DNA from: Scenedesmus sp. PABB004
Lineage: Eukaryota
Length of the DNA stretch: 64,000 nt
Assembly: GCA_014905635.1 (NCBI GenBank)
Contig: JABVCE010000002.1
Coordinates: 372,001-436,000 of the forward strand
Direction: 5' to 3'
Shown here: in pieces, positions 462-56,645 of the stretch
Layout of the letters: each line of letters opens with the position of its first letter
How positions within the stretch are numbered: position 1 is the first letter of the stretch
Position numbers and translations under genes: made by a program
The notes under the pieces: model-generated
What the model was told of the DNA's origin: nothing
Seen by the model: the letters and a program-made list of their open reading frames with translations, nothing else
Databases searched by the model: none

Positions 462-1687
462 ATGGGGCGCGTGGAGGCGGTGTACGATGAGTACCTGGCG
501 CGTCGCAAGGGCATCATCCGCGCGCTGACGAACGAGGTGCGCGGCGGCGGCGGCCGCGCCGCTGCCGGCCGCGGCGGCGCCCGCCGCGGCGCGTGCGGCG
601 CGCCGCCGACGACGCCCTCCCGCCTCCGCGTGCAGGTGGACATGTTCTTCTCGCAGTGCGACCCGGAGCGCGAGAACCTCTGCCTGTACGGCAACGTCGA
701 CGGCACGTGGTCGGTGAGCCGCGCGGCCGGCTGCTCGCCGCGCGGCGGCGGGGCCCCCGCGCGGCGCGCTCACACCGGGCGGCGCGCGCAGGTGGACCTG
801 CCCGCAGAGGAGGTGCCGCCGGAGATCCCCGAGCCGGCGCTGGGCATCAACTTTGCGCGCGACGGCATGCAGGCGCGCAGCCGCGCCGCGACGGCGCGTG
901 GCAGCGCGCCGCGCGCCGCGCGCGCCGACACCCGCGCGCTCCCTCGCGCCCCGCCGCGCAGCGCAAGGACTGGCTCGCGCTGGTGGCGGTGCACTCCGAC
1001 TCGTGGCTGCTCGCGCTCGCGTTTTACAAGGGCGCGCGGCTGAACAAGGAGCAGCGCGAGGAGCTGTTTGGCGCCATCAACAGCTTACCCACCTGCTACG
1101 AGGTCGTGTCGGGCAAGGCCAAGGGCGCGGCGCAGCCGCGCAAGGTCGGCGCGGCGGCGCGGTCCAAGGCGCGCGCGGTGGGTGGCGGCGCGGCGGGGGG
1201 GGGGGGGCGCGGGCGCCGCGCAGCGCACGTGCGCGCCGTCGCGGGGCGGGGCGCGCGGCGGGGCGCGCGGCGGGGCGCGCGGCGGGGCGCGCGGCGGGGT
1301 GCGCGGCAGCCGCGCCCGCTGAGGGGGCTCGCCCCGGCCGGGCGGCGCGCCGCAGGACGACTACGACGACGACGACGAGGAGGACGACGGCTGGCAGGAC
1401 GGCGAGGGCGACCCCTGCCCCGGCTGCCGCGGCTTCTACCGCACCGACGAGTTTTGGATCGCGTGCGACAAGTGCGACAGCTGGTGGTGCGGCCGCTGCT
1501 CCAAGGTGCGGCGCGGCGGGCGCGGCGCGGCCGCGCGCTGGCCGCCGCCGCCGGCGGGGCCGGGCGGGCGGGCGCGCGAGCGCTCGCCCACACACCTTGC
1601 GCGCCCGGCGCGCAGATGACGGCGGCCAAGGCTGAGAAGACCAAGAACTGGTGCTGCGTCAAGTGCTCCGGCAATCGCTTCGACTGA
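462..1687 (+). CDS. Alfin-like PHD finger protein (PAL domain + C-terminal PHD), about 6 exons
   Basis: Spliced exons 462-536, 636-713, 792-872, 962-... give [60 protein letters not shown] and a PHD CPGC...[16 protein letters not shown]...WCCVKC. TGA at 1685-1687. The intron-4 donor is ambiguous. Confidence 0.95.
1246..1297. repeat. Intronic 12-bp GC tandem repeat (CGGGGCGCGCGG), about 4 copies
   Basis: Read directly inside Alfin intron 4. Confidence 0.75.
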
Positions 1688-2162
1688 CCGCGACACGCGC
1701 CTTGGCGCGCCGGCGGCGGCGGCGCGACGACGCAACGCACGCCCCCTCCCTGACTGCGACCCGCGCTCGATGGCGCGCGCTGACGACGACTGGTGCCGAC
1801 GACCACGCCGCGGGGCGCCGCGCGGCGCGCGGCGGCGGGCGGCGGCCTAACGCAGCGCACACTGGCTGCACACATTGCGGGTGACTGGCTCTTAAGGGTG
1901 ACCGGCGGGGCGGCAACAGCGGCGGCAGCAGCGGCAGCGGCGGGGCGCGGTCGCGCCGTGCGCGCGTGGCGCGGGGTGGCTCGCCGCCGGGGTGGGGTGG
2001 GCATCACGGCCGGGCGGTGTGCACTCCTGGCGCGGGCTCAGGCAACTGTTCAAAAACACGACGGCCGCTTCCCTGCCTGCACGCGATGCCGACGTGGCAG
2101 TCGGCCAGGGCAGACCCGCCGCGCGGCCCCGCCCCCGCGGACGCGCTCCCCCGGATGCCAGG

Positions 2163-3919
2163 ATGGCTGAATCGATGAGCCGCAGCTTCAGCGTGGACGA
2201 CCTGGTCGGCGGCATCTTCAGGCTGCAGAACCAGGCCGCGGGCGGCGCGGGCATGTTTGGACGCACCGACAGCGAGGCGGCGGTGAGGCGGCGGGTGGCC
2301 GGGCGCCCGGGCGGGTGGGGCGCGCATCCCACTGCCGCCGCCCCGCGCCCCCGCCCCGCCGCGCAGTTCCAGGAGTTCCTCAAGCGCATACCCAGCGCCA
2401 CCAACCTCACAGCCAGCGGCGGCGGCGCGTACGAGCCCGCGGCGCTGCAGGCGCAGGCGCAGCAGCTGCTCGCGTCCGGCGCGGGCGCGGGGGCCGCCGC
2501 GGCCGCGGCGGGCCTGCCCGAGGTCAGCGGCGGCATGCCCCGGGTGCCGTCGCTGGACGTGCTGCGGCAGCTGGTGCTCCAGAACCAGCTCAGCTCGGGA
2601 TTGAGCGTCGTCAAGAGCGAGGTGCTGCCGCCAGGTGGGGGGACGGCGCGCGCCTAGGGCGGGCCCGGCGGGTGGACCCGGCACCGCGGCAGTCGGCGGG
2701 CGGCGCCGGCGCGGCGCCGGCGCGGGGCGGCGCCGGCAGCGGCGCGCGGCGCGGCGCGGCGCGGCGCGGCGCGCGCGCCTGCCGGACCGCGCGCAATGCT
2801 GGGGTCCCCCCCTCCCTCCCCTGGCCGGCCTGACCCGCCGCCGCCACCGCCGCCGCCCGCAGCGGTGTCGCTGGCGGCGCCGGCGCCGGTGCCGGGGCTG
2901 CCAGCGCTCTCGGCCGCGGCGGAGCCAGCGCTGCCGCCGGTCGACCCCGCGCTCGCCGCCGCCGCCGCCGTGGCCGCGGGCTCGGCGCTCATGGTCAACC
3001 CCGCGGCGGCCGCCGCCGCGGCGGCCGCGATCCAGCTGCAGCAGATGCACGTGCCGCTGCGCGCGCCCAGCAGCTCGCGCGACCGCGACGACAAGGAGGG
3101 CGGCGGCGGCGGCGGCGGCGGCGGCAAGGACGAGTCGCGGCGCCAGCGCAGGTGCGGCGCCGGCCGCGGCGCCCGTGCGGGAGGGGTGGGGGGGGGCTGC
3201 ACCCGCGCGTTGCGCCCGCCCTCGCCGGCCGCTGCCCGCCCGCGCGTGCGCGCGCGCCCTGTTTACGCCCGCCCGCCCGCCCCGCCAGGATGCTGTCCAA
3301 TCGCGAGTCGGCGCGGCGCAGCCGCAAGCGCAAGCAGGAGCACATGCAGACGCTGGAGGCGCAGCTGGAGGAGGTGGCGGCCGAAAAGCGCGAGAAGGAG
3401 GCGGCGGCCGACCTCGCCGAGCGCCGCGCGCGCGGCCTGGAGGAGGAGAACGCCCGCCTGCGCGAGGACAACGAGCGCCTGCGCGACGAGCTGCGCTTCC
3501 TGCGCGAGGAGGTGCGCCTGTGCGCGTGTGTCGCGTGTGTGCGCGCGGGAGGGGGCGCCGACACGCGACGCGCCGCGCCGCCCCCGTCGCCCCCGCGCCG
3601 ACCCGACCCACCCGACCCGGCCCGACCTGGCTCGCCCGCGCCGCAGCTGACGGAGCGCAAGGAGCGCAACGGTGGGTACCAGCGCGAGCGCAGCAGCGAC
3701 GGCGAGCAGGAGGCCCAGGCCGCGCGGCCGCCGCCGAGCAAGCGCACGCGCGCGAGCGCGGCGGCCGAGGCGGCGGCGCCCGCCGGCGGCGGGCGGCGCG
3801 GCAAGGGCTCGCCCGCGGCCGCGGCCAAGCAGCACGCGGCGGCGCAGGGCGAGGGCCACGGCGACGACGCGGCGGCGGAGGGCGCGCAGCAGCCGGCCGG
3901 TGACGACACGCTGCAGTGA
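2163..3919 (+). CDS. bZIP transcription factor, group C-like (bZIP63/Opaque2 type), 5 exons
   Basis: N-terminal MSRSFSVDDL and RTDSEAA|FQEFL; basic region RRQR|RMLSNRESARRSRKRKQEH followed by a leucine zipper; GT-AG introns; TGA at 3917-3919. Confidence 0.9.
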
Positions 3920-4521: not shown

Positions 4522-6548
4522 TCACAGGTCGTCGACGTCGTCCGAGTCGTCGTCGTCCAGCGCGTCCTCGTCCACCAGCGACACGTCCTCGCTCTCCTCC
4601 TCGCTGCCCTCCTCCTCCTCCTCCTCCTCGCTGCTGCCCGCCTCGCTCTCGCCGCCGCCGCCGCCGCCGGCCGCCGCGCTGCTGCCGGCGCCGCCCAGGC
4701 GCGCGCGCTTGGGCGAGCGCTGCTCCACCGCGTCCGGGTCAAAGTCAGAGTCCTCCTCCGACGACTCGTCGCCCGCCGCGTCGCCGCCGGCGGCGCCCAG
4801 CTGCGCGCCGCCAGGCGCCCCGCCGCCCCCGCCGCCGTCCTCCTCGTCCTCGTCGTCGCTGTCGTCGCCGACCTGCGACCCGCGCGCGTGCGGCCGCGCG
4901 GGCGCGGCGCTCGGCGGCTGCGCGCGCGCCCAGCCCCGCGCCGGCGCCCCGCGCCGCGCCCCTCAGCGGCGGGCGCACCCTGATGCGCTGCGCCGCGAGG
5001 TAGGCCTGCAGGGCGCCCAGCTCCGCCGCGTCGACCTGGCCCAGCTCGAGCGCCTTGGCGCCGCCGGCGCAACGCACGGTGAGGTCAAACGTCGCGCTGC
5101 CGCCGCCGGCGCGGTGGAACGCGACGCGCGCGATGGCGCGCGCAGGGATGAACCGCCCCGGCCGGCCGACGTAGACGAGCCCCGCCGCGAGCGGCACCAG
5201 CCAGCCGGGCGACGCGCCGTGGTTGGCGGCCACCATGAGGTCGCCTGCCGCGGCCGCGCGCGCGGCGGCGCGGCGGGGCGCGGCCTCGCGGGCGGCCCGG
5301 CGCGCGGCGGCCGGCGGCGGCGCGCGCGGCGGGGCGGGTTGAGAGGCGCGGGGGCGCACCCGCTGCGCTGGAGAAGACGTGCGGCTCCGCGGTGAGGAAG
5401 GTGTCGTCGGTGAGGTCAGGCATGAAGCTCGCCAGCAGCTGGCTCGCCACCACCGCGGCGGGGCCCGCCAGCTGCGGCCCCAGGTGCGCCGCGGCCGGCG
5501 GCGACGGCAGGCACAGCTCCGGCTGGTCCTTGGTCTGCGGCGCCGCGTCGTTGCGCGTGCCGCGGCGTCGCGCGCCGCCCCACACGGCGCCGCCCGGCCG
5601 CCCAGCTGGCACGCCCGGCCGCCCGGCCGCCCCGCACCTGCATTACCACCAGGTCCAGCTGGTTCTTGCCCTGCACCACGGGGCTGCGGTGGCGCCGGCG
5701 GCGCCGGCGCCGGCGGGGCGGGGCGCGCGGCGGCGTCGGCGGCACCGCGCAGCATCGCGGCGTCACGGCCGGCCGGCCGCCACGGCTGCGCCCCCGACCT
5801 GTGCAGGACGAGCACGATGTTGGTGGTGCTGGGCTGCTTGGGGATGGCATCGATCACCTGCGCCGCGCGTGCGCTGGACGGCTCAGAGCGGCGGGCCCAG
5901 CAAGCTCTGCGGCTCTCGCCCGCCCGCGCTGCGGCGCTCGCCCCGCACCAGCACGTGCTGTATGCTGCCGTACGGCACCAGCACGCTCGTCTGCTTGTTC
6001 GCCAGCTGCAGGCCGTCGGCAAAGAAGCCGACGTCAAACTTGCCCCTGCGCAGCACGCGCGCGCGCGCGTTTGAAGCGTCGTCGCGCGCCGGCCGCCGCG
6101 CCGCTGATGGCGCCGCCGCGCGTGATCCCACGTGACCCGCACGCGCCTGGGGATGATGCACGACACCCCGGGCAGCGCCGCCTCGGCCGCCGAGAGGTCG
6201 CGCACGGCCGCCGGCGCTGCTGCCGCTGCCGCCGCCGCCTTTGGCTGCACCGTGCTGCCTGCGCGCAGGGCAGCGTTCGCCGTGCCGCGCCATACCACCG
6301 TGATCACGGCGCCGGGCCGGCCTGCCGCCGCACGGCGCCGGTCCAGCCTGGCGCAGCCGCTGCTCGCTGCTCTCGGCGACGCCGTCGCTCCTCCGCGCAC
6401 CGTTGGTGCCGCCGCCACCGCGCAGCGCCTGCTCCACGATCTGCGCGACCTTGTCGGCTATCGCGGACACGGCGTCCTTGGGCACGCGCTGCGCCTCGAG
6501 CAGCGCCAGCAGCTCGGGGTACGCCGCGTAGCGCGCCAGGTTCTCCAT
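4522..6548 (-). CDS. Rtt106/SSRP1 middle (double-PH) domain histone-chaperone-like protein with acidic C-terminal tail, 8 exons
   Basis: Spliced product contains IIPR|GKFDVGFF and GWLVPLAAGLVYVGRPGRFIP...VAFHRAGGGSATFDLTV...ELGQVDAAELGALQAYL, then D/E-rich tracts (SSEEDSDFDP) and an NLS-like SPKRAR. Confidence 0.75.
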
Positions 6549-6797: not shown

Positions 6798-9014
6798 TCA
6801 GTCGGCCAGCGGCCGCAGGCTGGCAAACCAGCACAGCTCGCCGCCCTGCGCGAGCGCGCTCCACACCTGGGGCTGCCAGCCGCCGCCGTGCGGCGGCGCC
6901 GGCCCCCCTCCCTGCGGCGGCGCCAGCAGGTTGAGGGACGACCCGATGCCGCGCACGTCCACGGGCAGCAGCCCGTGCGCCGCGCCGGCGGCGGCGTCCC
7001 AGCGGAGCAGGGCGGCCGTGTGCGCGAGCGCGGGCGCGGGCGAGGCGATGCCGCTCACGAGCGCCTGCAGCGCGTCGTGGTTGGCCGCCGCGGCGATCCG
7101 AACGCCCACGACCACGTCCAGGTGGTGCGGCGGCCGGCTGTCGCCGCCGTCGCCGACCAGCGGGGCGTGCCGTGCCACCGCCTCGGCCGCCTTGGCGCCC
7201 GCGATGGCCCACAGAGCGCCGCACGTCGCGCAGCGCTTGCACGCGCTGACTGCGCAGTCCGGCACGCCGCAGCCGGGCGCCGGCGCGGCGGCGGCCGCAG
7301 CAGCCCCGGCCCCCGCGCCGGGGCGGCCGCCGTCCAGCACGCTGGCCCACGCGGGCTGGCAGCGCACGGAGACGCACAGCCGCGGCGCGGCGTCGGCCGC
7401 CGCGCTGGCCTCGTGCGGCGCGGCAGGCTGGCGCCCTGCCTTCGGAGGGCAGGGCGCCGCGACGAGGGCGAGGTCCCAGACGTAGCCGCCCAGCACACGG
7501 CGCTGCAGCGCGACGCCCGCCGCGCACGCGCCCTCGCGCCGCCGGGGGTCGAGCAGCGCGCGCAGCTGGCTCAGGCGCGTGCGCGTCTCCGGCCCCCAGT
7601 CGCTGCTGCTGGCTGTGCCGCCGTCGGCGCAGGGGCCGCTGATGCCGGAGGCGTCAGGGCTGGCCGGGAGCCCCCGGCGCAGCGTCGCCGACCAGGGGCA
7701 GCTCTGCCCGCGCCGCAGACGCTGCATCGCCAGCTCGTAGCGGCCGTGCATGTCAGCGCTAGGACGGTGCGCAGCGTGGCGAGCGGCGGTGCGCGGCGGT
7801 GAGCGGGCTGCGGCCCCGGCCGCCGCCGCGCGCCGCGCCCGCACCGCGGGGTCCGCCACCGGTCCAGCAGCGCTGCGTGCAACTGCCGCCGCGACCTCAC
7901 CTGTAGAAGGCGCGCATCGGCCTCAGCCCTGGCGCGCCCCGCATGCCTGCGCACAGCCACGGCCGCTGCGCCACGGCGGCCGCGAGGAGCGCGCCCGAGA
8001 CCAGCGGCAGCCGCACCGCGCGCACCAGCAGCTGCAGCGCCGCCGTCAGGCCCGGGCCGCCGCCGTCGGCCGCCCCGCCCCCGGCGGCGGCGCCTGGCCC
8101 TCGAGGCGCCGCGCAACTGGCCCCGCCAGCCAAGCGTCGATGGCGGTCAGCGTGCTGCCCTCGGACGCCAGCGCTAGCTCGTCGCTGCGCAGCAGCGCCG
8201 CCAGCACGTCGGCTGGCAGGCGCTGCAGCACGTCACGCCCGGCCGGGCTCGCGAGGCAGAGGTCGAGGTCCCGCAGGTCGCGGGTGAGCCGGTCGACGGC
8301 GCCGCGCCGCAGCTTCGCGAGCGCCGGCTGCTGCGCCAGCGGCGCCGGCAGCCAGAGCACCTCCAGCGCTGCCGGCCAGCTCAGCGCCGCAGGCTGGGGC
8401 GCGCCCCGCAGCAGGCCGCTCAGCTGGCCCGCCGCCGCCGCCAGCACGCCCGGCGCCCCGAACCGGTCGGCAAGGCGCAGCACGCCCACCGCCAGCTCCT
8501 GCTGGCAGGGGCCGGCGGCGTCGTCGGCCGCTGGGCCAGCCACGCCACGTGCGCATGCGTCAGCACAGGCGCTCGCGTCGCCGCCGGGCGGCGCCAGCAC
8601 TGCAGCCAGGTCGGGCTCTGCCAGGGCCTCCACGCTGCCCGTGTAGATTGCCCTGAGCAGCGCCAGCATGGGCAGCAGATCCCCCGGGTCCTCCAGCACC
8701 ACGCGCACGCGCCGCATCACCTTCATCACGTGCGGCGCGCCGCAGCGCAACGCCAGCGCGCCCCCGCGCGGCGGCTCTGCCGCCTGCGCCGGGCCGCCGG
8801 CGCCGTCCGCCCAGTGCTGGCCGAGTGCTGCGGCGAAGAAGCCGGACGCCGCCACCAGCAGCACGCCGTGGGCCGGCACACGCGCGAGCACCTCGTCCTC
8901 GTGCGTGAGGGGCTCGCCGCCCCCGCGGCGGCAGGGCTGGGCGACGACCAGCTCGAGCTCACAGTCGGCATGGTGCCGGTCAAGCCACAGCTGTGGCAGC
9001 GCTGCCAGCTGCAT
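6798..9014 (-). CDS. BTB/POZ-BACK domain protein, 3 exons
   Basis: ADCELELV...VPAHGVLLVAASGFF (BTB); LLRSDELALASEGSTLTAIDAWL...Q|LLVRAVRLPLV (BACK). Introns 8032-8093 (GC-AG) and 7759-7900 (GT-AG) join three ORF-track frames. Confidence 0.75.
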
Positions 9015-9400: not shown

Positions 9401-12400
9401 TCACCGCTTCACTGCGACCCAGGTGAGGGCACGCAGCTGCGCCTCCATGAAGGCGCAGAAGCGCTCCTCCTCGGCCGTGCTCCAGGGCGGCAGGCCGTCG
9501 AGGCGCTGCTCGCGGCGGTACTTGCGCTCCTGGCGCCGCCGCAGCTCCGGCACATCGCCCTGCCCCGTCGCGACCAGCAGCAGCGCGTTGGCCGGCAGCG
9601 CGGCGTGCACGGCGCCCACCGCGCGGTCCAGCGCCGCCAGGCGCGCCGCGAGCGCGTCGGGGCCAAAGTCGCGCGCGAGCGCCGCCGCCGCCGCGGCCGC
9701 CGCCGCGGCGAGGTCCTCGCCGGCGGCGCCGCCGCCGTCCGGGGCCGCCTCCGCCTCCGCCTCCGCCTGGCGCTGCGCCTGCTGCGCGGCGGCCAGCTGC
9801 CGCTGCGCCTTGGACCTGCGCCGCGGCGGCGGGCGGGCGCGTGTGGGCGCGCGCGCGTGCCTGCGCGCTCACGTGCGGCGAGCCGCCGCAGCGCGCGGCG
9901 TGGCCGGCCGCACCGTTCAAACTGGTAGTCTGACAGCTCGGTCAGCTGCGTCCACACAAAGCCGTACGCGCCGCTGCGCGCCGTGCGCGCCGCCGTCTTG
10001 GCCGCCTGCTCGTCGCTCGCCACGAGCACCGCGCTCGCGTGGCCTGCGGCGCACGGCGGTGCGGCGCGGCGGGCTGGGCACAGCTGCGCGCGCGGGCGCA
10101 CACGCGCACGCGCACACACAGCAGCTGCGCGGCCTTTGCCGGCGGGCGCGCACCCGTGGCGTGCTTGCTGAGCGCCTGCTTCCGGTCCACGAGGCAGCTG
10201 GCGACCTTGCGCCCGCTGCCCGCGAGGACGTCGGGCAGCTTGTCCACCGACGCGGCGCCGTCGTTGGTGCCGAATGCGGGGCCTGGGCGGCGCCGCGCGC
10301 GCGCGCGGCTCGAGCGCGGCGCGCGCGCTGCGCGGCCGCGGTGGCGCGCCGTGCGGGCAGGGCCGGCGCCGCACCCTTTTCGATCTTCAGAAGCGCCAGG
10401 TCCATGGCGGCGCGCGCGTCGACGGCGCTGTCGTGCTCACCCTGCTGGATAGCGCGCTGCAGGAAGCGCGATGCCAGGTAGCGCAGCGACGAGCGGTATG
10501 GCAGGCCGCGCGGGTGCGGGAACAGCGCGGCGGTGTCCAGCACGCGCGCGTGGCACATCTGTGCGGCGGCGCGGCGCGGCGGCGCGGCGGCGCGGCGCGG
10601 CGGGTGGGCGCGCGCCGCGGGCGCGCGGGCGGCGCCGGCCGCCCAGCCGGGCGGCGCGGCGCGCGCCTTGAGCGCGGCGAGGTCGTTGTCCAGGGCGTGG
10701 CCGACGAGCAGCGAGGAGGGCTTGATGTGCCGCAGCAGCATGCGCTGCGCCGGCGCGGCGCGGCACGGCGCGGTGTCAGCCGGCGCGGCGGCGCACGTGC
10801 CCGGGCTGCCGGCGGCGCCGGCGCCGGCGGCCGCGCGGCCACCTGCGCGTCCTCGAGCCGCGTGTGCACGCCCTGCAGCATGGCGGCGGTGATGCCGCTG
10901 AAGCGGGTGTTGTAGTCGGTGATGGGGTTGACCGGCACGACAAGCTCGTCCACCAGCACCGCACCGCCCGCGTCGACGAGCGTCACGCGCGTGAGCTCAA
11001 ACCCCGCGCCCGTGATGCACATCTCGCAGTCCAGGCCCAGCAGCGACCCCGCCCACGGCGGCGGCGCCGCCGCCACAGAGCCCGGCGCCGCCGGCTGCTC
11101 CGCGGGCGGCGCCGGCGGCGGCGGCGGCGGCGGCGCGTCCGCGGCGTCGCCTGCTTCTGCGCCGCCATTCGCGTGCTTGTGCCGCTTGGCGGGGTGCTCC
11201 ACCTGCGCCTCCTCGGCCTCCCCCTCTGCCCCCTCGCTGCTCGCCTCGCCGGGCGCAGCCGCTGCTGCCCCGGCGTTGGCCCCCGCTGACTGCTGCTCCT
11301 GCTCTGGCAGGCTCCCGGTGCCGCCGCCGCTCCATCCGCCGCCGCCGCTGCTGCTCTCGCCGCCGCCGCTCTCGCCGCTGCCGCCCTCGCCGCTGCCGCC
11401 CTCGCCGCAGCTCGCGTCCCGCCGCTGCTGCTGCTCGCCCGCGACGCCGCTCACGACGTCGGGGTCGGTTGAGATGTAGCCGGGCGGGCAGTGCAGCCGG
11501 CCGTCGCTGCCGAGCGTGGGCACGGGGTAGCCCATGCTCTGCTGCTGCTGCGGGCCCAGCACGTAGTGCTCGGGCGGGAACGGCGGACGCCCCGCGCGCG
11601 CCGCCTTGGCGGCCGCCGCCTCGGCGACCGACTCGCGCTTGCGCTTGCGCGTCTGCGGCACGCCCAGCAGCGCGGCCGCGGTCTGGCCTGCGGGCGGCGG
11701 CGCGGCGCGGCGCGGCGCGGCGCGGGGCGGTTCGAGGCGGTTCGAGGCTCTGGGCGCGGCGCGCCGCGCTGCCCAGCCAGCAGGCCCAGCCGCGGCGGTC
11801 CGCGCACCTGGCTTGACGCTGCTGTTCAGCGCGAGCGTGGTCACCGGCGGCGGCAGCGCGGCGAGGTGCGTCATCAGGCCCTTGTGCTCGTCGTAGAGCT
11901 CCTGGCTGAGGCCATGCGCGAGCAGCAGCACCACCTGGCCGATGAGCGGCTTGTGCTGCGCGCGCGGCCGGCGGCGGGGCGATGAGCGGAGGGGGGAGAG
12001 CGCGAAGGCGGGGCGCCGCTGCGCGCGCCCCCCTCGCGGCGCACCTTGACAAACGCCCAGCGCGGCGACACGGCGTCGCCGAGCACCCAGAGCACCAGCT
12101 GCTGCACGTCGCGCAGCTGGATGGACGCCTGCGCCTTGACCTCGACGTCAGCGCGCGCCTGCGGAGGGGGGGGGGGGGGCGGCGCTCGGCGCGGCGCCGC
12201 GCGCGCCCAGCGGCTGGCTGCAGCGGCGCCCCAGCCGGCAGCCAGGCTCACGTCGTCGCCGTAGACGTTGACGAAGCCGCCGCCGACTGCAGGCGCGTCG
12301 GCGGCGCCGCCGTCGCCGCTGCCCGGCGCTGCTGCCGCGGCGGCCGCGGCGGCCGCGGCGGCGCGGGCGGCCTTCTTCGCCTTCTTCTCCTTCTTGGGGT

Positions 12401-12945: not shown

Positions 12946-13324
12946 TTAGTCGACCTCGGCCATGGCCTGCACCTCCTGCTCCGTGAACTTGCCCTTGCCC
13001 TTGTCCGCGGCCTTGCCGGCGCCCTTGCGGTCGAGCATGGCCTTGCGGTCCTTGTCGAGCTTGAGCTTGGTGATGACGCACTTGCTGGGGTCCACGCCGA
13101 CGCTCACGCTCGCGCCTGCCAGGCGGGCGCGCGGGCGGGCGGCGTGAGCGCGCGTGCACACAGGCGCGGGAGGGAGCGGCGCGACGGGGCGAGTGCGGAC
13201 GGCGCGCAGCGCGGGCCCCCGCCGTGCTACTGCCGCGCGACTGCTGCCACGACAGCCGCCCCGCGCTGCCGCGACTGCCGCCGCAGGTGCAACTGCCGCT
13301 GCCGGCGCCTCTGCCGATCCCGCT

Positions 13325-13358
<34 letters not shown>

Positions 13359-14386
13359 CTGCTGGCTTCGCCGCTGCTCGCGCCGCTGCTCACGCCGCTG
13401 CTCGCGCCGCTGCTCGCGCCGCTGCTCGCGCCGCTGCTCGCGCCGCTGCTCGCGCCGCTGCTCGCGCCGCCGCCGCCGCAGCAGCAGGCGCCGCCGCTGC
13501 AGGCGCCGCTGCGGGCGTTGCCGCTGCCGCTGCCGCCGCCGGGGCTGGCGCACGTGCACGCCGCCTGCGCTGCGCCCGCTGCTGCCTCTGGTGCGGTCCG
13601 GAGCGCGCCGCCGGGCCTCACCGTTGACCTTCTCGCGCGTGATGCGCTCAATGTGGATCACCCACTTCTTGCGGTAGACCTGCGTCACCTTGCCCTCGCG
13701 GCCCTGCGCCGCGGGGCCGGGCGCGCGCGGCCAGGCGCGCGGTGAGGCCGCCGCCGCGCTGCCGCGGCGCCGCGCCGGCCCCCGGCGCCGGCCGCGCCGC
13801 CTCCCGCGCGCGTCTGCGCGGGGCGCCCGGCGGCCGCCGGCCCGACCCGCGCCGCGCCGCCGCGCACGGCCCGCTGCCCGCGGCCCGCCGGCGGCGCGCG
13901 CGCCGCCGCTGCTCGCCGCTGCTGCTGCCGCCGGCGCGCACCTTGAAGGTGCCGCGCACCACCTGCACCTCATCGTCCTTCCTGATGGGCACGGCGCGCA
14001 CCTGCGCGGGCGGGGGGCGGTGAGGGGCGCGCGCGGGCGGGATCGGGCGCCCGGGGGCCCGCCCTGGCAGCAGCCGGCGCTCGCCTGGTACTTCTGGCGC
14101 AGCTCAGCCGACAGCGGCGAGCTCATGAGCTTCCTCCGCACATTGGAGGGCGCGGTGAAGTGAGCCTGCGGGCGACCGGGCAGCGGGCGGCGCGCTCGGC
14201 GGGCCATCGCAAGCGCCCCCGCCGGCGAGGAGCGCCCGCGCGCCGCAGCGCGCTCGGGGCGGTCCGGGCGAGGCCCGTGGGTGCGCCTGGGACCGCGCCC
14301 CACCGCAGGCGCGCCCCCGCTGCGCCCGCCCCGCCCACCTTGCGGCTCTTCCGCCGGGAGCTGCTGACGTTGGCTGAATACTTCAT
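12946..14386 (-). CDS. RPL26: 60S ribosomal protein L26 (uL24), 5 exons
   Basis: [115 protein letters not shown]. Confidence 0.99.
13369..13464. repeat. 12-bp minisatellite (CGCCGCTGCTCG)x8 in RPL26 intron 4
   Basis: Eight contiguous units, one with a G>A change. Confidence 0.9.
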
Positions 14387-20507: not shown

Positions 20508-20510
20508 CGC

Positions 20511-39514: not shown

Positions 39515-42500
39515 TCACAGCGCCCCGCCCGCCTCGGCCGCAGCGAGCGCGCGGAGCTGCGCCTCGGCGCGCGCGTGCCACGCCGGCGCCTGCGCCGCCA
39601 CGCGCGGCAGCAGCGCCGCGGCGCGCCCGCACGCCGCGCCGCCCTCCGCGCCGCGCAGCAGGCGTGCCAGCGCGCCGCTGCGCTCGGGCTCGTCGCCGCG
39701 CGGCGGCCCCGGCGGCGGCAGCAGGGCCGCGGCCTTGGGCAGGTGCGCGCCCGGCGGCTGCGCGCCCAGCGTCGCGTCGAGGCCCTGCGCGGCGGCCGCG
39801 AGGTCGGCGAGCAGCACCCACACCGCGTCTGCGTCCACGCGCGCGGCCGCGACCAGCAGGCGCGCCGCCGCCTCGCGCAGCGCGAGCGGCTGCGCGTCGG
39901 CCAGCAGCGGCGCCGCCAGCGCGGCGGCGTCCCACGCAAGGCCCGCCATGGCAGGCGCGGCGTCGGCGTCGCCCGCGACCGACGCGAGGCAGCCCAGCAC
40001 GGCGAGCTGGACGCGCTGCAGCGTCGCGGGCGCGAGGCCGGCGTCGGCGTCGTCCGCGCTGCACCCCGGGCCCGCGCCCAGCGCGTGCGCATCGTTCCAG
40101 CCCCGCGCCTCGCCGCCGCTTGCCGCCGCCTGCAGGCTCGCGAGCGCCGACTGCAGCACGCGCCCCTGGCCACCGCCGCTGCCGGCGCGGCCGCCGACCG
40201 CTGGCTCGCTGCCGGGGCCGCCGCCGACGCCGAGCAGCGCGGCCGCGGCCGGCCCGCCGCCGACGGTGCCGGCGGCGGTCGCCGCCGCGAGCGCCGTCGC
40301 GCCGGCCTGGGGGCCCGTGCGCAGCAGGCGCAGCAGCAGTGGCCAGGCCTCGCCCCTGAAGCGCCGCGACATGAAGCGACCGCCCGCGAGGCGCACCGCC
40401 TGCGCCAGCAGGCCCAGCCCCGCCTCGAGCAGCGCGACGCTGCCGGTGTCCTGCAGCGCCGCCAGCAGCGGCGGCCAGAGCGCGTGCACCGCGGGCAGCA
40501 GCTTCACGGGCTCGGGCCGCGCCGGCCGCAGCGCCGCGTCGCGCTCGCGCGCGAGCAGGCAGTCAAACAGCCGCTCCTCGTCGTCCAGCGCCGCCGTGGC
40601 CGCGGCGAGCGCGTCGAGCGCGCCCGCCAGCACGCCCGCCGCCTGCACGGCCGCGCGCAGGCTGCGCGCGAGCAGCAGCGGCGTCGCCGCCTCCGCCGCG
40701 GCGCTGGCCAGGCTGGCAGCGCTGTGCGCGCGGCGCCACGCGAGCTCCAGCGCCTCGAGCTCCGCCGGCGGCAGCCGCATCTTGCGCCCCGGCGGCAGCG
40801 CCGGCAGGCTGCGCAGGTCCAGGTCCACCTGCGGGGCTGCTGCCGGCGCCGGCGGGCACGGCACGCCTGCACCGTGCCCGTTGGCCTGCGGCGGCGACCG
40901 CGGCGGCTGCTGCTGCAGCGCCGCGCCACCCGCCGCCGCCTCGGCTGCCTGGCGGCGCATGCGGCGTCGGAAGTAGCGCGCCGCCGCGTCGGCGCCCGCC
41001 GCGGCGTCGCCGCCCTCCTCCTCGACAACCACCGCCGGCCCGCCGGCGCCGCTCTCGCCATCATCCTCGTCGCCCTCCTCGTCCTCGTCGTCGTGTGGCG
41101 CGTCAAACAGCCCTGACGCGCGCGCTGCGGCCGCCGACGCCGCAAGCTGGCCGTGCAGCGTGGCGGCCGCCGCGGCGGCCTCGTGCGCCGAGCCGGCCGC
41201 CACAGACTGCAGGATGTGGAGGAATGGCGCCACGTGGCCGGGCTGCTGCTTGCGCGCCAGAATGGACAGCCCCTGCGCGCCGGCAGCGGCGGCGGCAGAG
41301 GCGGCGGATGAGGAGGCGGCGGAGGAGGTGGCGGCGTCGGCCGGCCGCCCGGCGCGGCGGGGGCGGAGGGAGCGGCGCCCTGCGCGCGCGCTGCCAGCTC
41401 CCGCGCGGCGCAAACTCACGCTCAGCGCGGCGCGCAGCGGCTCCGCCAGCAGCGGCAGCAGCTGCCCGCCCACGCCCGCCTCGCGCAGCAGCGCCGCGAG
41501 CAGCTGCGGCGCGCGCGGGTGCGCCTGCAGCGCGCGCAGGCGCCGGCACACGCCGTCCACCACGTAGTCGGCGTTGGCGCCCACCAGCTCGCCGAGGCCG
41601 CCGGGGTAGCCGCCGTGGCGGCAGCAGCTGTCCAGCGCGCCCGCGGCCGCCGCCGCCACGAGCGGGCAGGGGTCGGCGAGCCGCTCCAGCAGCGGCAGCA
41701 GCGCCGCGCGCAGCAGGCGCGGCCGCGCCGCAAACGCGGGCCCCGCGCAGCGCGGCACCGTGCCGACGCAGTCGACCAGCGTGCGCAGCAGCAGCGCGTT
41801 GGCGCCCAGCACCTGGGCCGGCAGCCGCTGCGCCGCGCCGCCGCCCTCGCCCGCCTCGGCTGCCTCGGGCTGACTCGTGGGCAGGCCCCACAGCCTGCCC
41901 GCGGTGGCCGCCTCCACCGCCAAGAGCAGCACGCCCTCAAACGCGGCGTCCGCGCCCGGCGCCCCCGCCTCGCCCCCCTCGCCGCCAGCGAGGCCGCCGC
42001 TCGCGATGGGCGCCTGCCACGCGGGCGAGGCGCCAAACAGCACCTCTGTCAGCGCCACTACCACGGCGGCGCTCTGGCACTGCCACTCGCCGGCCGCCGG
42101 CGTCGGCGTTGGCGTCGGCTGCTGCTGCTGCTGCTTGTGCGGCGACGCCGCGGCGTGCAGCTGCTCCAGCAGCTGCTCCACGAGCGCCCGCAGGCTGCCG
42201 CCGGGCTGGCCGCCCTCCTGCTGCTGCGCGGCGTCCGCCAGGCGCGCCGTGCGGCCCAGCGCACGCGCGACGCCCGCGGCGGCGCGGTAGCTGTCGCGAG
42301 TGATGAGGTGACGCAGCGACAGCGGCATGCGCGGCAGCGCCGGGTGCCCCGTGCCGCGGGGCCGAGCCGGCGGCGCCAGCGCCGCCGCGCCGGGCCCGCC
42401 CGCCGCGGGCGCCGGCGCCGGGGCGCCTGGCTCGCGCTGCACACCGCTCGCGGCGGCCTCGGGCGCGGCGGCCTCGGCGTCGCCGGCCGCGCCCTGCACC

Positions 42501-46558: not shown

Positions 46559-48265
46559 TCACTGCGGGCCCGGCGGCGGCATCTGCGGCGGCGGTGGCGG
46601 TGCGGTGGCGTCAGCGGGCGCGCGCAGGGCGGCTCCCCGCAGCTTGTCGGGCGCGCGCACGCGGCGCTCACCCCGGGCGGGGCCATGCCCGGCGGCGGCA
46701 TGCCCGGCGGCGGCATGCCCGGCGGCGGCATGCCCGGCGGCGGCATGCCGGGGCGCATCTGCGCGCAGCGCGGCGCGGGAGCAGGTAGGCGGGCGTCGGC
46801 GCGGCGCGGGACAGGCGCAGCAGCTGCGCAGCGCATGCGGGCGCGGGCGCCGGCAGGGCGGCCACCCGCCACGCACCCCCGGCGGCACCATGCCCATCAT
46901 GGGCGGCGGCATCTGCGCGGGGGCAGGGCGGGCAGGGGCGCGCGTGAGCGAGCGAGGCACACGGCGCGGCGGGTGCGCAGCGGCGCGCAGCGGCGCGCGC
47001 ACCCCCGGGGGCGGCGCGAAGCCCGAGGGCGGCGCGAAGCCCGGCGGCGGCATGCCGGGGCGCATGGGGGGCATGCCCATGGGCGGCGGGCCTGCCGGGG
47101 GAAGGGAGAGGTGGGGCAGTGAGCGGGCGGGCAGCGCGCGCGGGCGGCGCGCGGGCGGGCAGCGCGGGCGGCGGCGGGCGGCGCTCACCCCCGGCGGCAT
47201 CATGCCCGGCGGCGGCATGCCAGCTGCTGGGGGCCGCATCACGGGCGCGGCGGTGACCTGGGGCCGCGGCGCCATCATGCCGGGCGCCGGCGCGCCCACG
47301 CCGCGGCCCAGGCCAGCCAGGCCCTGCGGCGGGGCAGTGGAGGAGGCGGCGGTGTTGAGCGGCACAGCCTTGGCGGCGGCGGCGGCGCGGCGGCACGGCG
47401 GCGGCGGCGGCGGCGGCGCACCGCGGGGGCTTGCCCGGGTACGCCCACGGGCAGGCCGCGGCCGGCCGCCCTGCCCATGCCGGGGCCGGCCTGCGTTGCG
47501 CGGCGCGCGGGCGGCGGCGGCGCGGTGAGGCCGGCGTCCGCGGGCGGCGCGGCGCGGCCAGCCGCGCTGCGTGCGCCGCCGGGGGGGGGGGGGGCGCTCA
47601 CGGGCGCGACTTGCTGCTTGATCGACCGCGTCTCCTCCGCCGGCGGCGGGCCCTCGATCGTGAGCGAGATGATCTCGTCGCCGCGCAGCAGCAGCATGCC
47701 CAGCACGCGCCGCTCCTCGCGCTGCCGCGGCAGCGCGGGCGCGGCGCGGCGCGGCGGGGCGGGGCGGGGTGGGGCGCCGCGGGCGCGGGCGCGCGGCCGG
47801 CGCCGGCCGCTGCTGCGGCGCGCCGCCCTGCTGCTGCTGCCGGCCGCGCGGCCGCTCACGTCGTCGTTGCCCTTCTTGGGCGGCAGCTTCCTGAACTCCT
47901 CCGCGTCGCCAAGCACCAGGTTCATGTGGCGGTCGTAGGCCATGAACCTGCGGCCGCGGCGCCGGCGCCGGCGGCGGCAGCAGCGGCGTCGGCCCCCGCG
48001 CCGTCGGGCGGCCGCGTGCCGCGCCGCGGCGGCGCCCAGCGCCGCTCCGGGGCGGGGGGCGCGCCCCGGACGGGCGGGCGGGGGCGGAGGGTGCCCACCT
48101 GCCGCATATCTGGCGCCCATCAGTGAGCGTGACCCGCATGCCTGCGGCGCGCCGGGCGGGCGCGTGGGCGCGCGGCGGCGGCGCCCTGGCGCCGCGCCAG
48201 GCCCGGATCAGGCGCTCACGGTAGTTGACATACTGCAGCAGCTTCCCCGTGCGCGACAGGCTCAT
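46559..48265 (-). CDS. SNRPB: Small nuclear ribonucleoprotein SmB, about 10 exons
   Basis: KLLQYVNYR|MRVTLTDGR..FMAYDRHMNLVLGDAEEFRK..REERRVLGMLLLRG..LTIEGPPP; PPPGM-repeat tail. Confidence 0.97.
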   Translation of the reverse strand: MSLSRTGKLLQYVNYRERLIRAWRGARAPPPRAHAPARRAAGMRVTLTDGRQICGRWAPSAPARPSGARPPPRSGAGRRRGAARGRPTARGPTPLLPPPAPAPRPQVHGLRPPHEPGAWRRGGVQEAAAQEGQRRRERPRGRQQQQGGAPQQRPAPAARPRPRRPTPPRPAAPRRARAAAAARGAARAGHAAAARRRDHLAHDRGPAAGGGDAVDQAASRARERPPPPRRRTQRGWPRRAARGRRPHRAAAARAPRNAGRPRHGQGGRPRPARGRTRASPRGAPPPPPPPCRRAAAAAKAVPLNTAASSTAPPQGLAGLGRGVGAPAPGMMAPRPQVTAAPVMRPPAAGMPPPGMMPPGVSAARRRPRCPPARRPRALPARSLPHLSLPPAGPPPMGMPPMRPGMPPPGFAPPSGFAPPPGVRAPLRAAAHPPRRVPRSLTRAPARPAPAQMPPPMMGMVPPGVRGGWPPCRRPRPHALRSCCACPAPRRRPPTCSRAALRADAPRHAAAGHAAAGHAAAGHAAAGHGPARGERRVRAPDKLRGAALRAPADATAPPPPPQMPPPGPQ

Positions 48266-51358: not shown

Positions 51359-53919
51359 TCAGTCAAAGCCGGCGCCCAGGCTGAGGCCGCCCAGGTTGGT
51401 TGCCAGCCCCTCGGCGCCGCCCGACGGCGGCGCCGCCTCGGGCTCCGCGCCCGCGGGCTTGTCGGCCTCGCCGCCGGCGGGCCCGTTGCCGCGCGCGGGC
51501 GCGCCGCCGGCCGGCCCGCCGAGCGCGCCCGCCTCGGCCGCGCCGGGCTCGATGCTGCCCCACGACGCGAGCGCGGCGGCGTCGAGCGGCTCCAGCTCGC
51601 CGAGCGCGCTCAGGTCGCCGCCGCCGCCGCCGGGCGCGCCGTCGTCGCCCTCAAGGCCGCCGCCGCCGGGCTCCAGCTCGCCCATGAGGTCGCCCAGCGC
51701 CACGCCGGAGGGCCCGGGGTCGTCAAAGAAGCCGTACGTGAGCGCGTTGAAGTTGGCGTCCAGCTGGCTCATCGCCAGCAGCGCCGCGGCGGTGCCCTCG
51801 TCCAGCGCGCCCACGCTCGGCCGCGCCGGCTCCTCGGGCTCCAGCAGCGAGTCGAGCAGCTTGTCGTCGTCGTCCTCCTCGCCGCCGCCGCCGGGCGCGC
51901 CGGGCGCGCCGGGCGCGCCGCCGCCGGGCGCGCCGTCGGCGCCCCGGGCGCGCCGTTGCCGGCGCCGGGCGCGGGCGGCGCGCCGGGCGCGGGCGGCGGC
52001 GCGCCGGACGCGGCCGCCGCCGGCGCGGCCGCCGCCGCCGGCGCGCCGCTCGCCGCCTGCTGCGACTCGGACAGCACCGCGAGCTGCTCCTTGGTGAGGC
52101 CCTTAAGGATGTTGAACTCGAGCGCCTGCTCAATGGTGAGGCCCATCGCAGCAAAGCGCTTGCCCACGGCCTTGAGGAACGCCTCGACGTTCTCCGGCGA
52201 CGCCGTCAGCGGCAGCCCGCCGCCGCCCATGAGCGCCGCAGCGTCGCCGCCGGGCGACGGCGCGCCGCCGCCGCCAAAGCCGCCGAGGCCGGCGAGGCCG
52301 GCGGGGCTGCTCACGGGCGGCGGCGTCATCTGCCGGCTCGGCCCCGCGGAGCCGGGCCCGCCGCCGAGGCTGAGGCCCAGCCCGCCCGCGCCGAGGCCGC
52401 CGAGCGTGGGGCTCCCGCCGGGCGCCGACGGCCCGGGCGCGAGGCCGCCGCCGAGGTCGGTCGAGACCTGCTTGCCGCGGTCCTGCCCGATCACGCCGAC
52501 GCGCGCGGGGTTGGGCTCAAACGGCCGGTTGCCGCCGAGGAGCTGCGACAGCATCGCCTGCGTCGCGACCGCGCCGCCGGGCGGCATGCCGCCGCCGCCC
52601 GCGGCGGCCGCGAGGCCCTGCAGCGCGGCGGCCTTCTGCTGCGCGTTCATGCCCGCCACGAGCTGGCGCTGCGCGAGCGCCGCGGTCGCGCCCGCCGTGG
52701 TGAGCTGCGAGGGCAGCGTGCCGACCGTGTCGGCCTTGCCCGCCGCCGCGGCCATGAGGCGCAGCAGCTGCTCGCGCTCGTTCGCGTTGGCGCGCTCCGC
52801 GTTGGCGCGCAGCGCCGCCATCGTCGCCGCGTTGAGCGCCTGCTGGTTGGCGTTCTGCTGCTGCGCCGCCGCCTGCTGCTGCTGCGCCACTTGCGCGGCC
52901 TGCAGCTGCTGCAGCTGCTGCTGCTGGCGCAGCTGGTGCTGGATCTGCAGCGCCTGCGCCTGCTGCTGCTGCGCCTGCGCCTGCAGCTGCGCGTGCTGCT
53001 GGCGGCGCACCAGGTCCTGCTGCGCGGCGTTGAGCTGCGCGAGGTTGCGGAGCTGCGCCGCGTTGTTGGCCTGCTGCTGCAGCTGCTGCTGCAGCAGCGC
53101 CGAGGCCGGCACGCCGCCGCCAAACTGCAGCCCCTGGCCCGCCGCGCCCTGCTGCGCCTGCTTGAGCAGCTGCTGCTGGATGAGCTGCTGCTGCTGCGCC
53201 GCCGTCAGGCCCTGGCCGCCCTGCAGCTGGCCGCCCATGAGGCCGTTGGCGGCGAGCTGGTTGAGCTGGTACTGCAGGCCCTGGTTGCCCTGCAGCGCCT
53301 GCTGCTGCGCCTGCGCCTGCTGGTGCTGCAGGAGCTGCTGCTGCTGGAGCTGCTGCTGCTGCAGCTGCTGCTGCTGCTGCAGCTGCTGCTGGAGCTGCTG
53401 CTGGCGCAGCTGCGCGAGCTGCGCCTGCTGCTGTGCGGCCTGCTGCTGCGCGGCCTGCTGCTGCAGCTGCTGCTGGAGCTGCTGCTGGCGCAGCTGCTGC
53501 AGCTGCAGCGCCTGCGCCTGCTGCGCGGCCTGCTGCTGCTGCGCGGCCTGCTGCGCCGCCTGCGCCTGCTGCAGCTGCTGCAGCTGCATCGCCTGCAGCT
53601 GGCTCTGGCCGCCGCCGCCCAGGCCGCCCATGCCGCCGCCGGGCAGGCCGGGCATGCGCTGCGCGCCGGGCGCGGCGGCGCCGCCGCCGAGGCCCATCGC
53701 GCCGAGCGACGGCGCGCCCGCGCCCGGCGCCTTGGCCAGGCCCGCCTGGTTCTGCATCCACACCGCCTTCATCTCGTCCATGGGCAGCGAGCCCTGGATG
53801 CTGAGGCCGTTGGGCAGGCCGGCGCCGGCGCCGGCGCCGCCGGCGCCGGGCTGCTGCTGCAGCAGCCGCGCCGCGGGGTTGGGCACGCCCAGGCCGTTGA
53901 GGCCGGCGTAGGGGTTCAT
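51359..53919 (-). CDS. Gln-rich, largely disordered protein with an apparent frameshift near 51943
   Basis: Strong codon bias; polyQ/A core; short helical domain SPENVEAFLKAVGKRF...; acidic C-terminus continues in another frame to the TGA at 51359. Likely 5'UTR intron 54029-54181. Confidence 0.8.
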
Positions 53920-54816
53920 TCCGGACCGCCGGCGGGGGTCGGGAAGGTCGGGGCCGCCGGCTGCCGCGCCTCAGCAGCTCAGCAGCACATCGCCACGGAT
54001 CGGGGCGCCCCGCCGCGCCGCACGTGACCTGCGCCCCGGCGGCGCGCGCGCACGGGACGGGTCGGCGCGTGAGCGACGGCCCGGGCCCGTCCGCCGCGCC
54101 CCCGCGCGCGCCGCGGCGCCACGGGGCGCCCCCGAGCTGCGCCGCGCCGCCCCGGCGCGCGCCGCGCGGCGATGGGCGCACCAGGCACCGCAGCGATGAG
54201 CGGCCACGGACAGCTTTGCGCAGGGCGCGAGCAGGCGCCGACGGTGCGATCCGGCCGGGCGGGGGCGCCGGGGCCGTCTGCGCTCGCAGGCCACCTGCGA
54301 CGCGCAGGGCGGGCGGGCGCGCGCACCGGGCGGTGCGGGAGGTCTCAGCGGCTTCCGAACGGGCCGCGACGGCCGGCGGCGGGGCCGGGCGCGGCCGGGC
54401 GGGGGCATGGCAACGGGCAGCGGGCCGTGCGGCCCGCCCTGCGCCCCGCGCGGACCGCCCCCAGCCCGGGCATACAGGCCAGCAGCGTCCCCTGTCGCGC
54501 GAGGGCCCACCTGGCGTCCGCCGCGCGCCGAGAAGGGCGCGGTGCTGTGTCCACGCACGCGCAAGGCGGTATGGGGAGCCGGCGGGCGGGTGGGGGGATC
54601 CGTTGGTGTGCGGGCAGCGCGCGGGGGGCGGTTGAGGGCCGGCGCGACAGCGGCGGCGGCGCGCCGCAGGCGCAGGGCTCAGGCGGCGGGCGGCGAGCAG
54701 GTCCTCCCCCGCAGGAGGGGCGGCCGGCGTTACCAGCTGCGGCCCCGGGCCCCCGCCGCGGCGCCCGGCGCCCGGCAGCCGCCGCCGCGGCCGCAGCGCC
54801 GAGGCCCCGGCCGGGG

Positions 54817-56645
54817 TCACGCGAGCGGCACGCGCGGCACCGACGGCACGGCGTCGTAAAAGTCGTGCGCCGGCCGGCGGTCCGCGACAGCCTGCGTGCA
54901 GATGCCGGCGACGTCGAGCGCGTCGACGACCCACTGCGGCACGTCGCGGCCCGGGAACATGGTCGCCAGGAAGCCGCGCACAAAGTCGGGGAAGCGCTGC
55001 TCCGCGATCGCGGCCCGCATGCGCCGCGTCAGGCCCTGCATGTACGCGACGTTGTGCATGCTCACCAGCACCGCCGCGCTCGGCACGCCGCGCGTGACGA
55101 CGTGGTGCAGGTACGACCGGCTCACGCGCGCGCACGCGACGCAGCCGCACGCCGCGTCGATCGGGCGCCCGTCGCGCGCGTACGCCGCGTTTTTGAGCTT
55201 TATGAGCCCCCCGTCGACGAGCGCGACGCCGAAGCGCGCGGTGCGCGTGGGGTAGACGCTGTCGTACATGTCGGCGCCGAGCGCGGAGCAGACGAGCACG
55301 TCGAGCGGGTAGCCCACGCCCATGACGTAGCGCGGCTTGCCGGGCGGCAGCCCCGCCGCGCACTGCGCGACGACGCGCCAGAACTGGTCCTTCGTCTCGC
55401 CGCCCGCGAGGCCGCCGATCGCGTGCCCCGGCGCGCCGCGCGCGGTCAGCGCGGCGATGCTCGCCGCGCGCAGGGACACGTCAAAGCCGCCCTGCACGAT
55501 CGGGAAGAGGCTCTGCTCCCCGGGGCGCGCGTGCGCGGCGATGCAGCGGTCGAGCCAGCGCGTCGTGCGGTGCGTCGCCTCCTCAAAGCGCGCGGGGTCT
55601 GCGGCGCGCGCGGTGCGGTTGGCGGCGCGGCGTGGCCGGCGCGGCGGCGCGGCGCGCCCGTGCGGGCGGCGGCGCGTCACGCGCACCCGTGTTGGTCGCT
55701 GGGACGACGTCGTCGAGCTGCATCATGATGTCTGCGCCCAGCGCGTTCTGGATCGCGATGCTCTGCTCCGGCGTGAGCAGCATGCGCGAGCCGTCGACGG
55801 GGCTCTGGAACGTGACGCCGTCCTCGGTGATGTCGGCGAGGTGCAGCAGGCTGACCATCTGGAAGCCGCCGCTGTCGGTCAGCATGCCGCGCGGCCAGCC
55901 GATGAACTCGTGCAGCCCCCCCATCGCCGCGACCAGGTCGGCGCCAGGCCTGGCGGCGGCGGGCGGGGTGGGGCGGGCGGGGCGGGCGGGGCGGGCGAGG
56001 CGGGCGGGCGGGCGGGCGGGCGGGCGGGCGGGCGGGCGTCAGCGCGCCGGCGGCGCGGGCGCGAGCGGGTGCGCCGGCCCCGTGGGGCGCGCCTGTTGCC
56101 CAGGTGGTAGGTGTTGCCCAGGATGACGTGGCAGTCCAGCTCCTGCAGCTGCTCGCTCGTGAGGCCCTTCACCGTGCCTGCCGCGGCGTGGCGTGCGGCG
56201 CGGCGCTCGCCGCGGCGCTCGGCGGTGCGCCGCAGGGCGCGCGGCTGCTCCTGCCGCCGCCGCCGCCGCCGCCGCTGCAGCAGGCGCAGCGCGCGCCACC
56301 GCCGCCACAGCAGCAGGTGCAGCAGCAGCAGGCGCAGCGGGAGGGGGTGGGGGGTGGCGCACCCTGCGTGCCGACGGGCATGAACATCGGCGTGAGCGCC
56401 GTGTGGTGCGGCAGCTTCATTGCCGCACTGCGCGCGCGCCCCTGCGCCGCCAGCACGCGGAACTCGAGCGCCGGCGACACCGAGCTCGGCAGCTCGCCGG
56501 CGGAGGAGGAGGCCCTGCGCGGCGCGGGCGACGGCGTGGGGCGCCGCCGGCGCGGCGCCGCGGCGCTGCCGCCACGCCAGGCAGCGCGCGCGGCGAGCTG
56601 AGCTCACATGGTGACGATGCCGCGCCGGCAGGCCCGCGGCAGCAT
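54817..56645 (-). CDS. QTRT1: Queuine tRNA-ribosyltransferase catalytic subunit (eukaryotic TGT), 5 exons
   Basis: [83 protein letters not shown], CxCxxC..H zinc site. Confidence 0.97.

Follow-up and report, generated by a model that had tools for sequence, protein, structure and literature searches.

The introns considered here are predicted to begin with GC and to end with AG, and lie in protein-coding genes of a 64-kb stretch of DNA from Scenedesmus sp. PABB004 (contig JABVCE010000002.1, positions 372,001 to 436,000; hereafter the window, with coordinates counted from its first nucleotide). The gene set of the window is eukaryotic and plant-like and includes an Alfin-PHD protein, a bZIP protein, an Rtt106-like protein, a BTB/BACK protein, an RNase_T exonuclease, RPL26, NME7 and a GT71 mannosyltransferase, as well as a heavy-metal P-type ATPase, an SSF transporter, TTI1, TMEM234, TIC20, SmB, a DnaJ-like protein and QTRT1. 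The closest relatives of the large QTRT1 exon are found in chlorophycean green algae, with Tetradesmus obliquus first (76% identity), followed by Pleodorina, Edaphochlamys and Chlamydomonas. Judged from its sequence, the window is nuclear DNA of a chlorophycean green alga near the Sphaeropleales.

The G+C content lies between 76 and 81% in every 4-kb bin of the window (about 80% overall), and on the + strand the dinucleotide GC accounts for 21.6% of all dinucleotides and GT for 3.7%. In the coding segments supported by Pfam, third codon positions reach 95% G+C and second positions 56%, while the predicted introns, at 87% G+C, exceed the exons. At 80% G+C few stop codons occur, stop-free stretches run through all six frames and lists of open reading frames (ORFs) are uninformative; gene models were therefore judged by their colinearity with protein profiles and homologues. 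A Pfam search of stop-to-stop ORFs (300 of the 542 ORFs of at least 60 amino acids (aa), from 1-33 kb) was too insensitive for short exons, and Pfam was instead run on 126 predicted exons. An Rfam scan of the 64-kb window returned no family at threshold and no small nuclear RNA gene.

Ten predicted GC-AG introns and their junctions

The ten introns are listed below with their donors, in which the slash marks the exon-intron boundary; recovery and margins (in nats) refer to the gene finder described in the following section.

873-961, + strand: Alfin-PHD gene, 89 nucleotides (nt), cag/GCGCGC with acceptor CAG; exact by Pfam profile and recovered exactly by the finder
6046-6146, - strand: Rtt106-like gene, probable intron, 101 nt, cag/GCGCGT; recovered exactly by the finder
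8032-8093, - strand: BTB/BACK gene, probable intron, 62 nt with the donor at 8093; the acceptor at 8032 is shared by donors at 8093 (cag/GCGCCG) and 8126 (ctg/GCGGGG), both GC
10559-10666, - strand: RNase_T-type exonuclease gene, 108 nt, in frame and stop-free, aag/GCGCGC; margin 11.0 nats
14002-14084, - strand: RPL26 (uL24) gene, 83 nt, cag/GCGAGC; margin 9.4 nats
16254-16330, + strand: NME7 gene, 77 nt, cag/GCGCGA; exact against FAP67
17838-17956, + strand: GT71 gene, probable intron, 119 nt, cag/GCGCGC; recovered exactly by the finder, margin 5.6 nats
18116-18263, + strand: GT71 gene, 148 nt, aag/GCGCGC; junction at aa 211
19570-19724, + strand: GT71 gene, 155 nt, aag/GCGCGC; junction at aa 445
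55950-56092, - strand: QTRT1 gene, 143 nt, cag/GCGCGC; splits a codon

On the coding strand, each of the ten intervals has GC at its start and AG at its end, follows an exonic AG and opens with GCGC or GCGA, as the initial annotation had described. Boundary shifts that leave the mRNA unchanged were all listed for each interval, and none yields GT-AG or AT-AC. Only the 108-nt intron of the exonuclease gene has a length divisible by three; the other nine must be removed if the reading frame is to hold. A GC donor had initially been proposed for all ten; homology places seven of the predicted junctions exactly, to the residue (Alfin, RPL26, NME7, QTRT1, the exonuclease and two in GT71), while those of the Rtt106-like gene, the BTB gene and the GT71 intron at 17838-17956 are probable only.

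The Alfin exon that ends at 872 corresponds to positions 51-76 of the Pfam profile PF12165 up to its final residue, and the exon that starts at 962 takes up the profile with its first residue and covers positions 77-126. With the best GT donor (intron 813-961), 20 conserved residues would be lost. The fourth intron of the same gene (1169-1355, + strand) has two candidate donors, aag/GCGCGC at 1169 and gcg/GTGGGT at 1178, 9 nt further on, both of which are in frame and fall within a linker that is not conserved, with 1.2 nats between them; it is possibly an eleventh GC-AG intron or carries a pair of alternative donors.

Three further junctions are bracketed by homologues on both sides. For RPL26, residues 2-26 of the 27 in the upstream exon match a uL24 chain at 18-42 and residues 2-20 of the downstream exon match it at 45-63, placing the junction between 43 and 44. 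For NME7, residues 93-127 of 129 in the upstream exon match Chlamydomonas FAP67 (6u42_5O) at 233-267 and residues 1-41 of the downstream exon match 270-310, which sets the junction between 269 and 270; the GT alternative (16239-16330) would be a 5-aa deletion. When the exonuclease gene is read through its intron, residues 8-26 align to Arabidopsis SDN1 (5z9x_A) at 215-233 and residues 63-123 at 234-297. The 36 residues encoded by the intron have no counterpart in this alignment, which places the junction between 233 and 234, although the first aligned stretch is weak alone.

In QTRT1, one exon covers positions 28-53 of the TGT profile and the exon that follows covers 56-140; a single residue and the split codon lie between these stretches. 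The spliced protein aligns with homologue P0002 over 425 aa with 0 gaps and 714 bits, and 0 gaps were found in 5 of the 12 homologues tested. The best model restricted to GT donors loses 26 residues and scores 652 bits with one gap, and the best model with a GG donor gains 4 residues and scores 709 bits, again with one gap.

The GT71 gene contains three of the ten introns. The junction at aa 211 is gap-free against homologues P0125, P0128, P0122, P0132 and P0162, of which P0122 covers this junction only, and the alternatives to the intron at 18116-18263 would add 34 aa (GT) or 11 aa (GG). The junction at aa 445 is gap-free against P0125 and P0128 and shows a 1-residue gap against P0132; here the GT alternative (19546-19724) would delete 8 aa. 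The GT junctions of the same gene at aa 254, 305, 339, 387 and 514 are likewise gap-free against P0125. The intron at 17838-17956 lies in a poorly conserved stretch in which homologues vary by 1-5 residues, and its GT alternative (17898-17956) adds 20 aa.

For the Rtt106-like intron, the knock-out margin is 5.1 nats over a GT alternative (6046-6131) that adds 5 aa, and the downstream exon has a weak PH1_SSRP1-like Pfam match (E = 0.13). At the BTB locus the finder favours the donor at 8126 by 2.9 nats, while with the donor at 8093 the match to the BACK profile reaches position 75 instead of 70 and gains 1.9 bits; no alternative intron appeared there when the finder was restricted to GT donors. 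When longer proteins were searched, neither the Rtt106-like exon nor the BTB/BACK exon had a homologue at E <= 1e-5, and for this reason both introns stay probable.

Intron counts and splice-site patterns

Introns were counted with a purpose-written, self-training gene finder. Its codon-usage model was seeded from the segments with Pfam support, the opposite strand was represented by a shadow state, and introns could be 35-900 nt long. Viterbi training supplied the matrices for donors and acceptors, the donor being required only to begin with G and the prior at +2 being equal for A, C, G and T. From a flat start with 60 GT, 28 GC, 10 GG and 17 GA donors, the finder converged on 96 GT, 21 GC, 1 GA and 0 GG, that is, 118 introns in 23 gene models. 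Nine of the ten introns listed above were recovered at their exact coordinates and the tenth, in the BTB gene, with the same acceptor and a different GC donor; knock-out margins for the ten range from 2.3 to 11.0 nats. The background contains G and C at the same frequency, and the absence of any GG call in free competition therefore argues against the GC calls being simple artefacts of composition. The initial estimate was about 100 introns in the window, and the finder predicts 112-118. Two small gene models on the + strand, at 13985-14163 and 56380-56601, are antisense to RPL26 and QTRT1, respectively, and are most likely artefacts.

The consensus of the GT donors is G-T-G-[C 58%, A 26%, G 12%]-G, preceded by G at -1 in 84% and by A at -2 in 40% of cases. 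The GC calls carry the same pattern at +3 to +5, G-[C/A/G]-G, and all ten of the listed GC donors read MAG/GCGC or MAG/GCGA. Exonic AG at -2 and -1 precedes 10/10 of these donors as against 30/96 GT donors (Fisher p = 2.7e-5), and when only the seven exactly placed donors are considered the proportion is 7/7 (p = 5e-4). Measured against the consensus complementary to U1, CAG/GTAAGT, the GC donors average 4.80 matches and the GT donors 4.98 of 9 and thus do not differ; in the exonic part of this consensus (three positions), however, the GC donors have 2.70 matches and the GT donors 1.64 (p = 3e-4). In the predicted donors, the pair lost at +2 is regained on the exon side, an instance of the compensation known from GC-AG introns generally (Sheth et al. 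2006).

Acceptors are alike in the two groups, with CAG in 10/10 GC and 95/96 GT introns. No compensation was seen at the branch site, a CTSAY box being present in the last 60 nt of 2/10 GC and 32/96 GT introns. The branch signal is itself weak, since only those 32 GT introns carry the box, at a median distance of 32 nt from the 3' end.

These patterns also bear on intron class. U12-type introns, which are removed by the minor spliceosome, are recognized by the 5' motif [AG]TATCC or GCATCC and by a TCCTTAAC-like branch site near the 3' end. GC-AG introns of this type exist and carry GCATCC at +1 to +6 (Sheth et al. 2006), so that in principle the introns of the window could be of this kind. 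All ten start with GCGC or GCGA, however, and agree with the GT majority at +3 to +5, and the scarcity of the CTSAY box, noted also when the last 45 nt were inspected, points the same way, although no search was made for the U12 branch consensus as such. Membership of the U12 class is ruled out by the 5' motif, and the chance that the minor spliceosome accounts for these introns is minute.

The model for the SmB gene (LSM domain; 46559-48265, - strand) ends in a tail made of very short exons. Three of these have near-identical boundaries, ccgggg/GTG...CAG/atgccg or atgcgc, and the proline-rich repeat tail looks as if it had been enlarged by the duplication of exon-intron units.

Origin and recognition of the GC donors

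The introns are probably U2-type spliceosomal introns in which C stands for U at +2, forming a share of about 9% (range 6-16%) of the introns in the window, with compensated donors and an unchanged U1. The donor consensus would then be G-Y-G-[C/A/G]-G, realized as GTGCG or GTGAG in about nine introns out of ten and as GCGCG or GCGAG in the remainder. GC-biased substitution would have converted GT to GC at +2, and C at this position would be tolerated only where the remaining site, chiefly the MAG exon end, pairs sufficiently with the unchanged 5' end of U1. The extra matches on the exon side, together with a total equal to that of the GT donors, argue for ordinary recognition by U1 and not for an adapted small nuclear ribonucleoprotein (snRNP). 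The initial annotation had linked the excess of GC-AG introns to extreme G+C content; this link is supported and agrees with the explanation published for GC-rich algae (Iwata and Gotoh 2011, PMC3033335).

Among 60 metagenomic QTRT1 loci, an intron at aa 51 is common to many, unlike the GC intron, which lies at aa 79.7. One green-algal locus of this set (L058, 64% G+C) has a GT intron, cag/GTGCGG (3060-3275), 5 nt downstream of the position of the GC intron of the window and in another phase; this offset could be due to independent gain or to intron sliding.

Several points weigh against the reading of these introns as U2-type GC-AG introns with compensated donors. The ab initio count is soft: when restricted to GT donors, the finder still assembles 112 introns by way of nearby in-frame GT sites, and with GC forbidden and GG allowed it produces 11 GG introns, all at loci that had GC or GA calls in the free run. 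Because the finder always picks a substitute, ab initio counts are weak alone and only homology decides which model holds; where the GG substitute was tested in this way (QTRT1), it was rejected. At least two of the GC calls are false, namely 13994-14070 (+ strand), which is antisense to RPL26, and 13116-13266, which flanks a spurious exon of 100 residues. Nine more GC calls (1169-1355, 7250-7318, 8499-8576, 11095-11172, 20489-20576, 37597-37731, 40829-40933, 47092-47295 and 51878-52053) have knock-out margins of 0.1-4.4 nats and are not fixable by homology. The compensation signal may be partly a matter of ascertainment, since well-matched GC donors are more easily detected both by a reader and by a finder that penalises C at +2. 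The motif GCG[CAG]G occurs 4359 times and AGGCG[CAG]G 112 times on the two strands, look-alikes so frequent that the motif alone cannot define GC donor sites. The direction of change at +2, from T to C, is one that we infer. Finally, splicing was predicted from sequence, and the share was counted in this one 64-kb window.

Two observations belong beside these points. The five RPL26 exons with homology already total 146 residues and a single GT intron, 13116-13621, preserves the frame; the last RPL26 intron (- strand) is thus probably one GT-AG intron of 506 nt. Within it, the segment 13268-13567 shows codon-like periodicity strong enough to give rise to a false exon and has no match in Pfam or Rfam. 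The look-alike donors from which introns must be distinguished number 763 for GTG[CAG]G, beside the GCG[CAG]G sites counted above.

Correction of the two false calls leaves a denominator of about 116 introns, of which GC-AG introns make up 6.0% at the minimum (7/116), 8.6% as the best estimate (10/116) and 16% at the maximum (19/116). If the true rate were 1%, the chance of seven in about 116 would be 1.8e-4 and that of ten 3e-7. The share of 8-10% initially estimated by hand therefore stands, and an elevated fraction of GC-AG introns in the window is confirmed for the predicted gene models. It is very unlikely that the true share is near normal because some models are wrong, nearby GT donors being used at the cost of small insertions or deletions in the proteins. 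Such a reading could draw on the in-frame GT alternatives that lie near 17 of the 22 non-GT calls, and on the three probable introns and nine low-margin calls that homology does not fix. At the seven exact sites, however, a GT donor would remove 5-26 residues from conserved blocks or add 34 to them, the GC models are gap-free at these junctions, and seven such introns alone already far exceed 1%.

The canonical sequences are AUACUUACCUG for the U1 5' end and ACAGAGA for the U6 box, and the spliceosome of this lineage could, as the initial annotation had suggested for U1 and U6, have become adapted through an altered U1 5' end, U6 box or U1 snRNP protein such that C at +2 is fully accepted. A GC-AG share roughly tenfold that of model species would be in line with such an adaptation, and RNA modification or U1 snRNP proteins were left open as a cause by Iwata and Gotoh (2011). 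Nevertheless, full acceptance of C does not sit well with the additional exon-side matches of the GC donors, nor with their total match to the canonical consensus, which is the same as that of GT donors. Moreover, about 90% of donors keep T at +2 within introns of 87% G+C, which indicates that this position is still strongly constrained, and according to the same survey the U1 5' end is canonical in three GC-rich algae. An adapted spliceosome is accordingly quite unlikely, and ordinary U1 recognition of compensated donors is the preferred account.

The survey of Iwata and Gotoh (2011, BMC Genomics 12:45, PMC3033335) covered 61 species and reported GC-AG shares of 39.6% for Aureococcus anophagefferens and 22.2% for Micromonas pusilla, which have 69.5% and 65.9% G+C, respectively; the share was 7.7% for Chlorella sp. 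and 2.7% for Micromonas RCC299. It held high G+C content responsible for this abundance, though not alone, and described the 11-nt 5' end of U1 as canonical in Aureococcus and in the two Micromonas species. The window resembles these algae in belonging to a GC-rich algal nuclear genome, in a GC-AG share many times the usual 1% and in the explanation by G+C pressure, and its share of about 9% is close to, and compatible with, the rate in Chlorella sp. It differs from them in its G+C content of about 80%, as against 66-70%, and in its organism, a chlorophycean that is not among the species surveyed. Its share is also far below that of Aureococcus (P(<=10 in 116) = 6e-14); as the window is nonetheless the more GC-rich, G+C content alone does not set the GC-AG fraction. 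The window is thus, on its predicted introns, a further example of the published abundance of GC-AG introns in GC-rich algae, and no prior report of this abundance in the chlorophycean lineage was found in searches confined to one collection of open-access papers.

In five model species, GC-AG introns account for 0.37-0.87% of introns (Sheth et al. 2006, NAR 34:3955, Table 1), as compared with about 9% here, and the remainder of the 5' splice site is reported by the same authors to compensate for the mismatch. The U2-type GC-AG introns of these species share with those of the window the GC and AG ends and, apart from +2, a 5' site that matches the U1-complementary consensus better than that of GT introns. 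The compensation in the window differs in being almost wholly exonic (MAG), and the intronic consensus is GYG[C/A]G instead of GYAAGT.

Strong GC-AG introns are unevenly spread, with 9 among the 51 introns predicted in the first 20.7 kb as against 1 among 67 over the other 43 kb (post hoc comparison, Fisher p = 0.002). The G+C content of introns does not differ between the two parts (0.874 and 0.867). The finder is blind to homology, and unequal detection is therefore unlikely to explain the clustering. The clustering would suit an origin of the GC-AG introns in a family of introners (transposon-derived introns) whose copies bring or create GC donors, as in some dinoflagellates, where GC-AG borders predominate among introner-derived introns (review PMC11282704). 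A high GC-AG share is common to both systems, but in the window no repeat family is visible: in an all-against-all blastn comparison of the 118 predicted introns the top score was 80.5 bits, as against 62-71 in five shuffled sets, the best pairs were simple GCC repeats, and the GC introns range in length from 62 to 155 nt. An introner origin has, in consequence, only a slight chance of being correct. If the uneven spread holds genome-wide, it may reflect a regional erosion of +2 from T to C that is still in progress, for example through local biased gene conversion, although this is unlikely.

For genome annotation, the consequence is that at least seven conserved genes of the window would be modelled wrongly by a gene caller restricted to GT donors, the alternatives found in the GT-only run having 5-26 residues deleted or 20-34 inserted. 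The window also contributes a case from the extreme of G+C content among eukaryotes, one in which such composition is combined with a moderate GC-AG share. From the published trend, 80% G+C should give far more GC-AG introns than are seen; the GC-AG share is thus not predictable from G+C content alone, a matter termed an enigma in 2011. The MAG exon end of all GC donors and the fact that about 90% of donors still have T at +2 would fit a pairing threshold with an unchanged U1. If regional erosion is indeed taking place, this alga would offer a natural system in which to study the limits on GC donors, and to set a threshold of about five U1 pairs against a lineage-specific change in the U1 snRNP.

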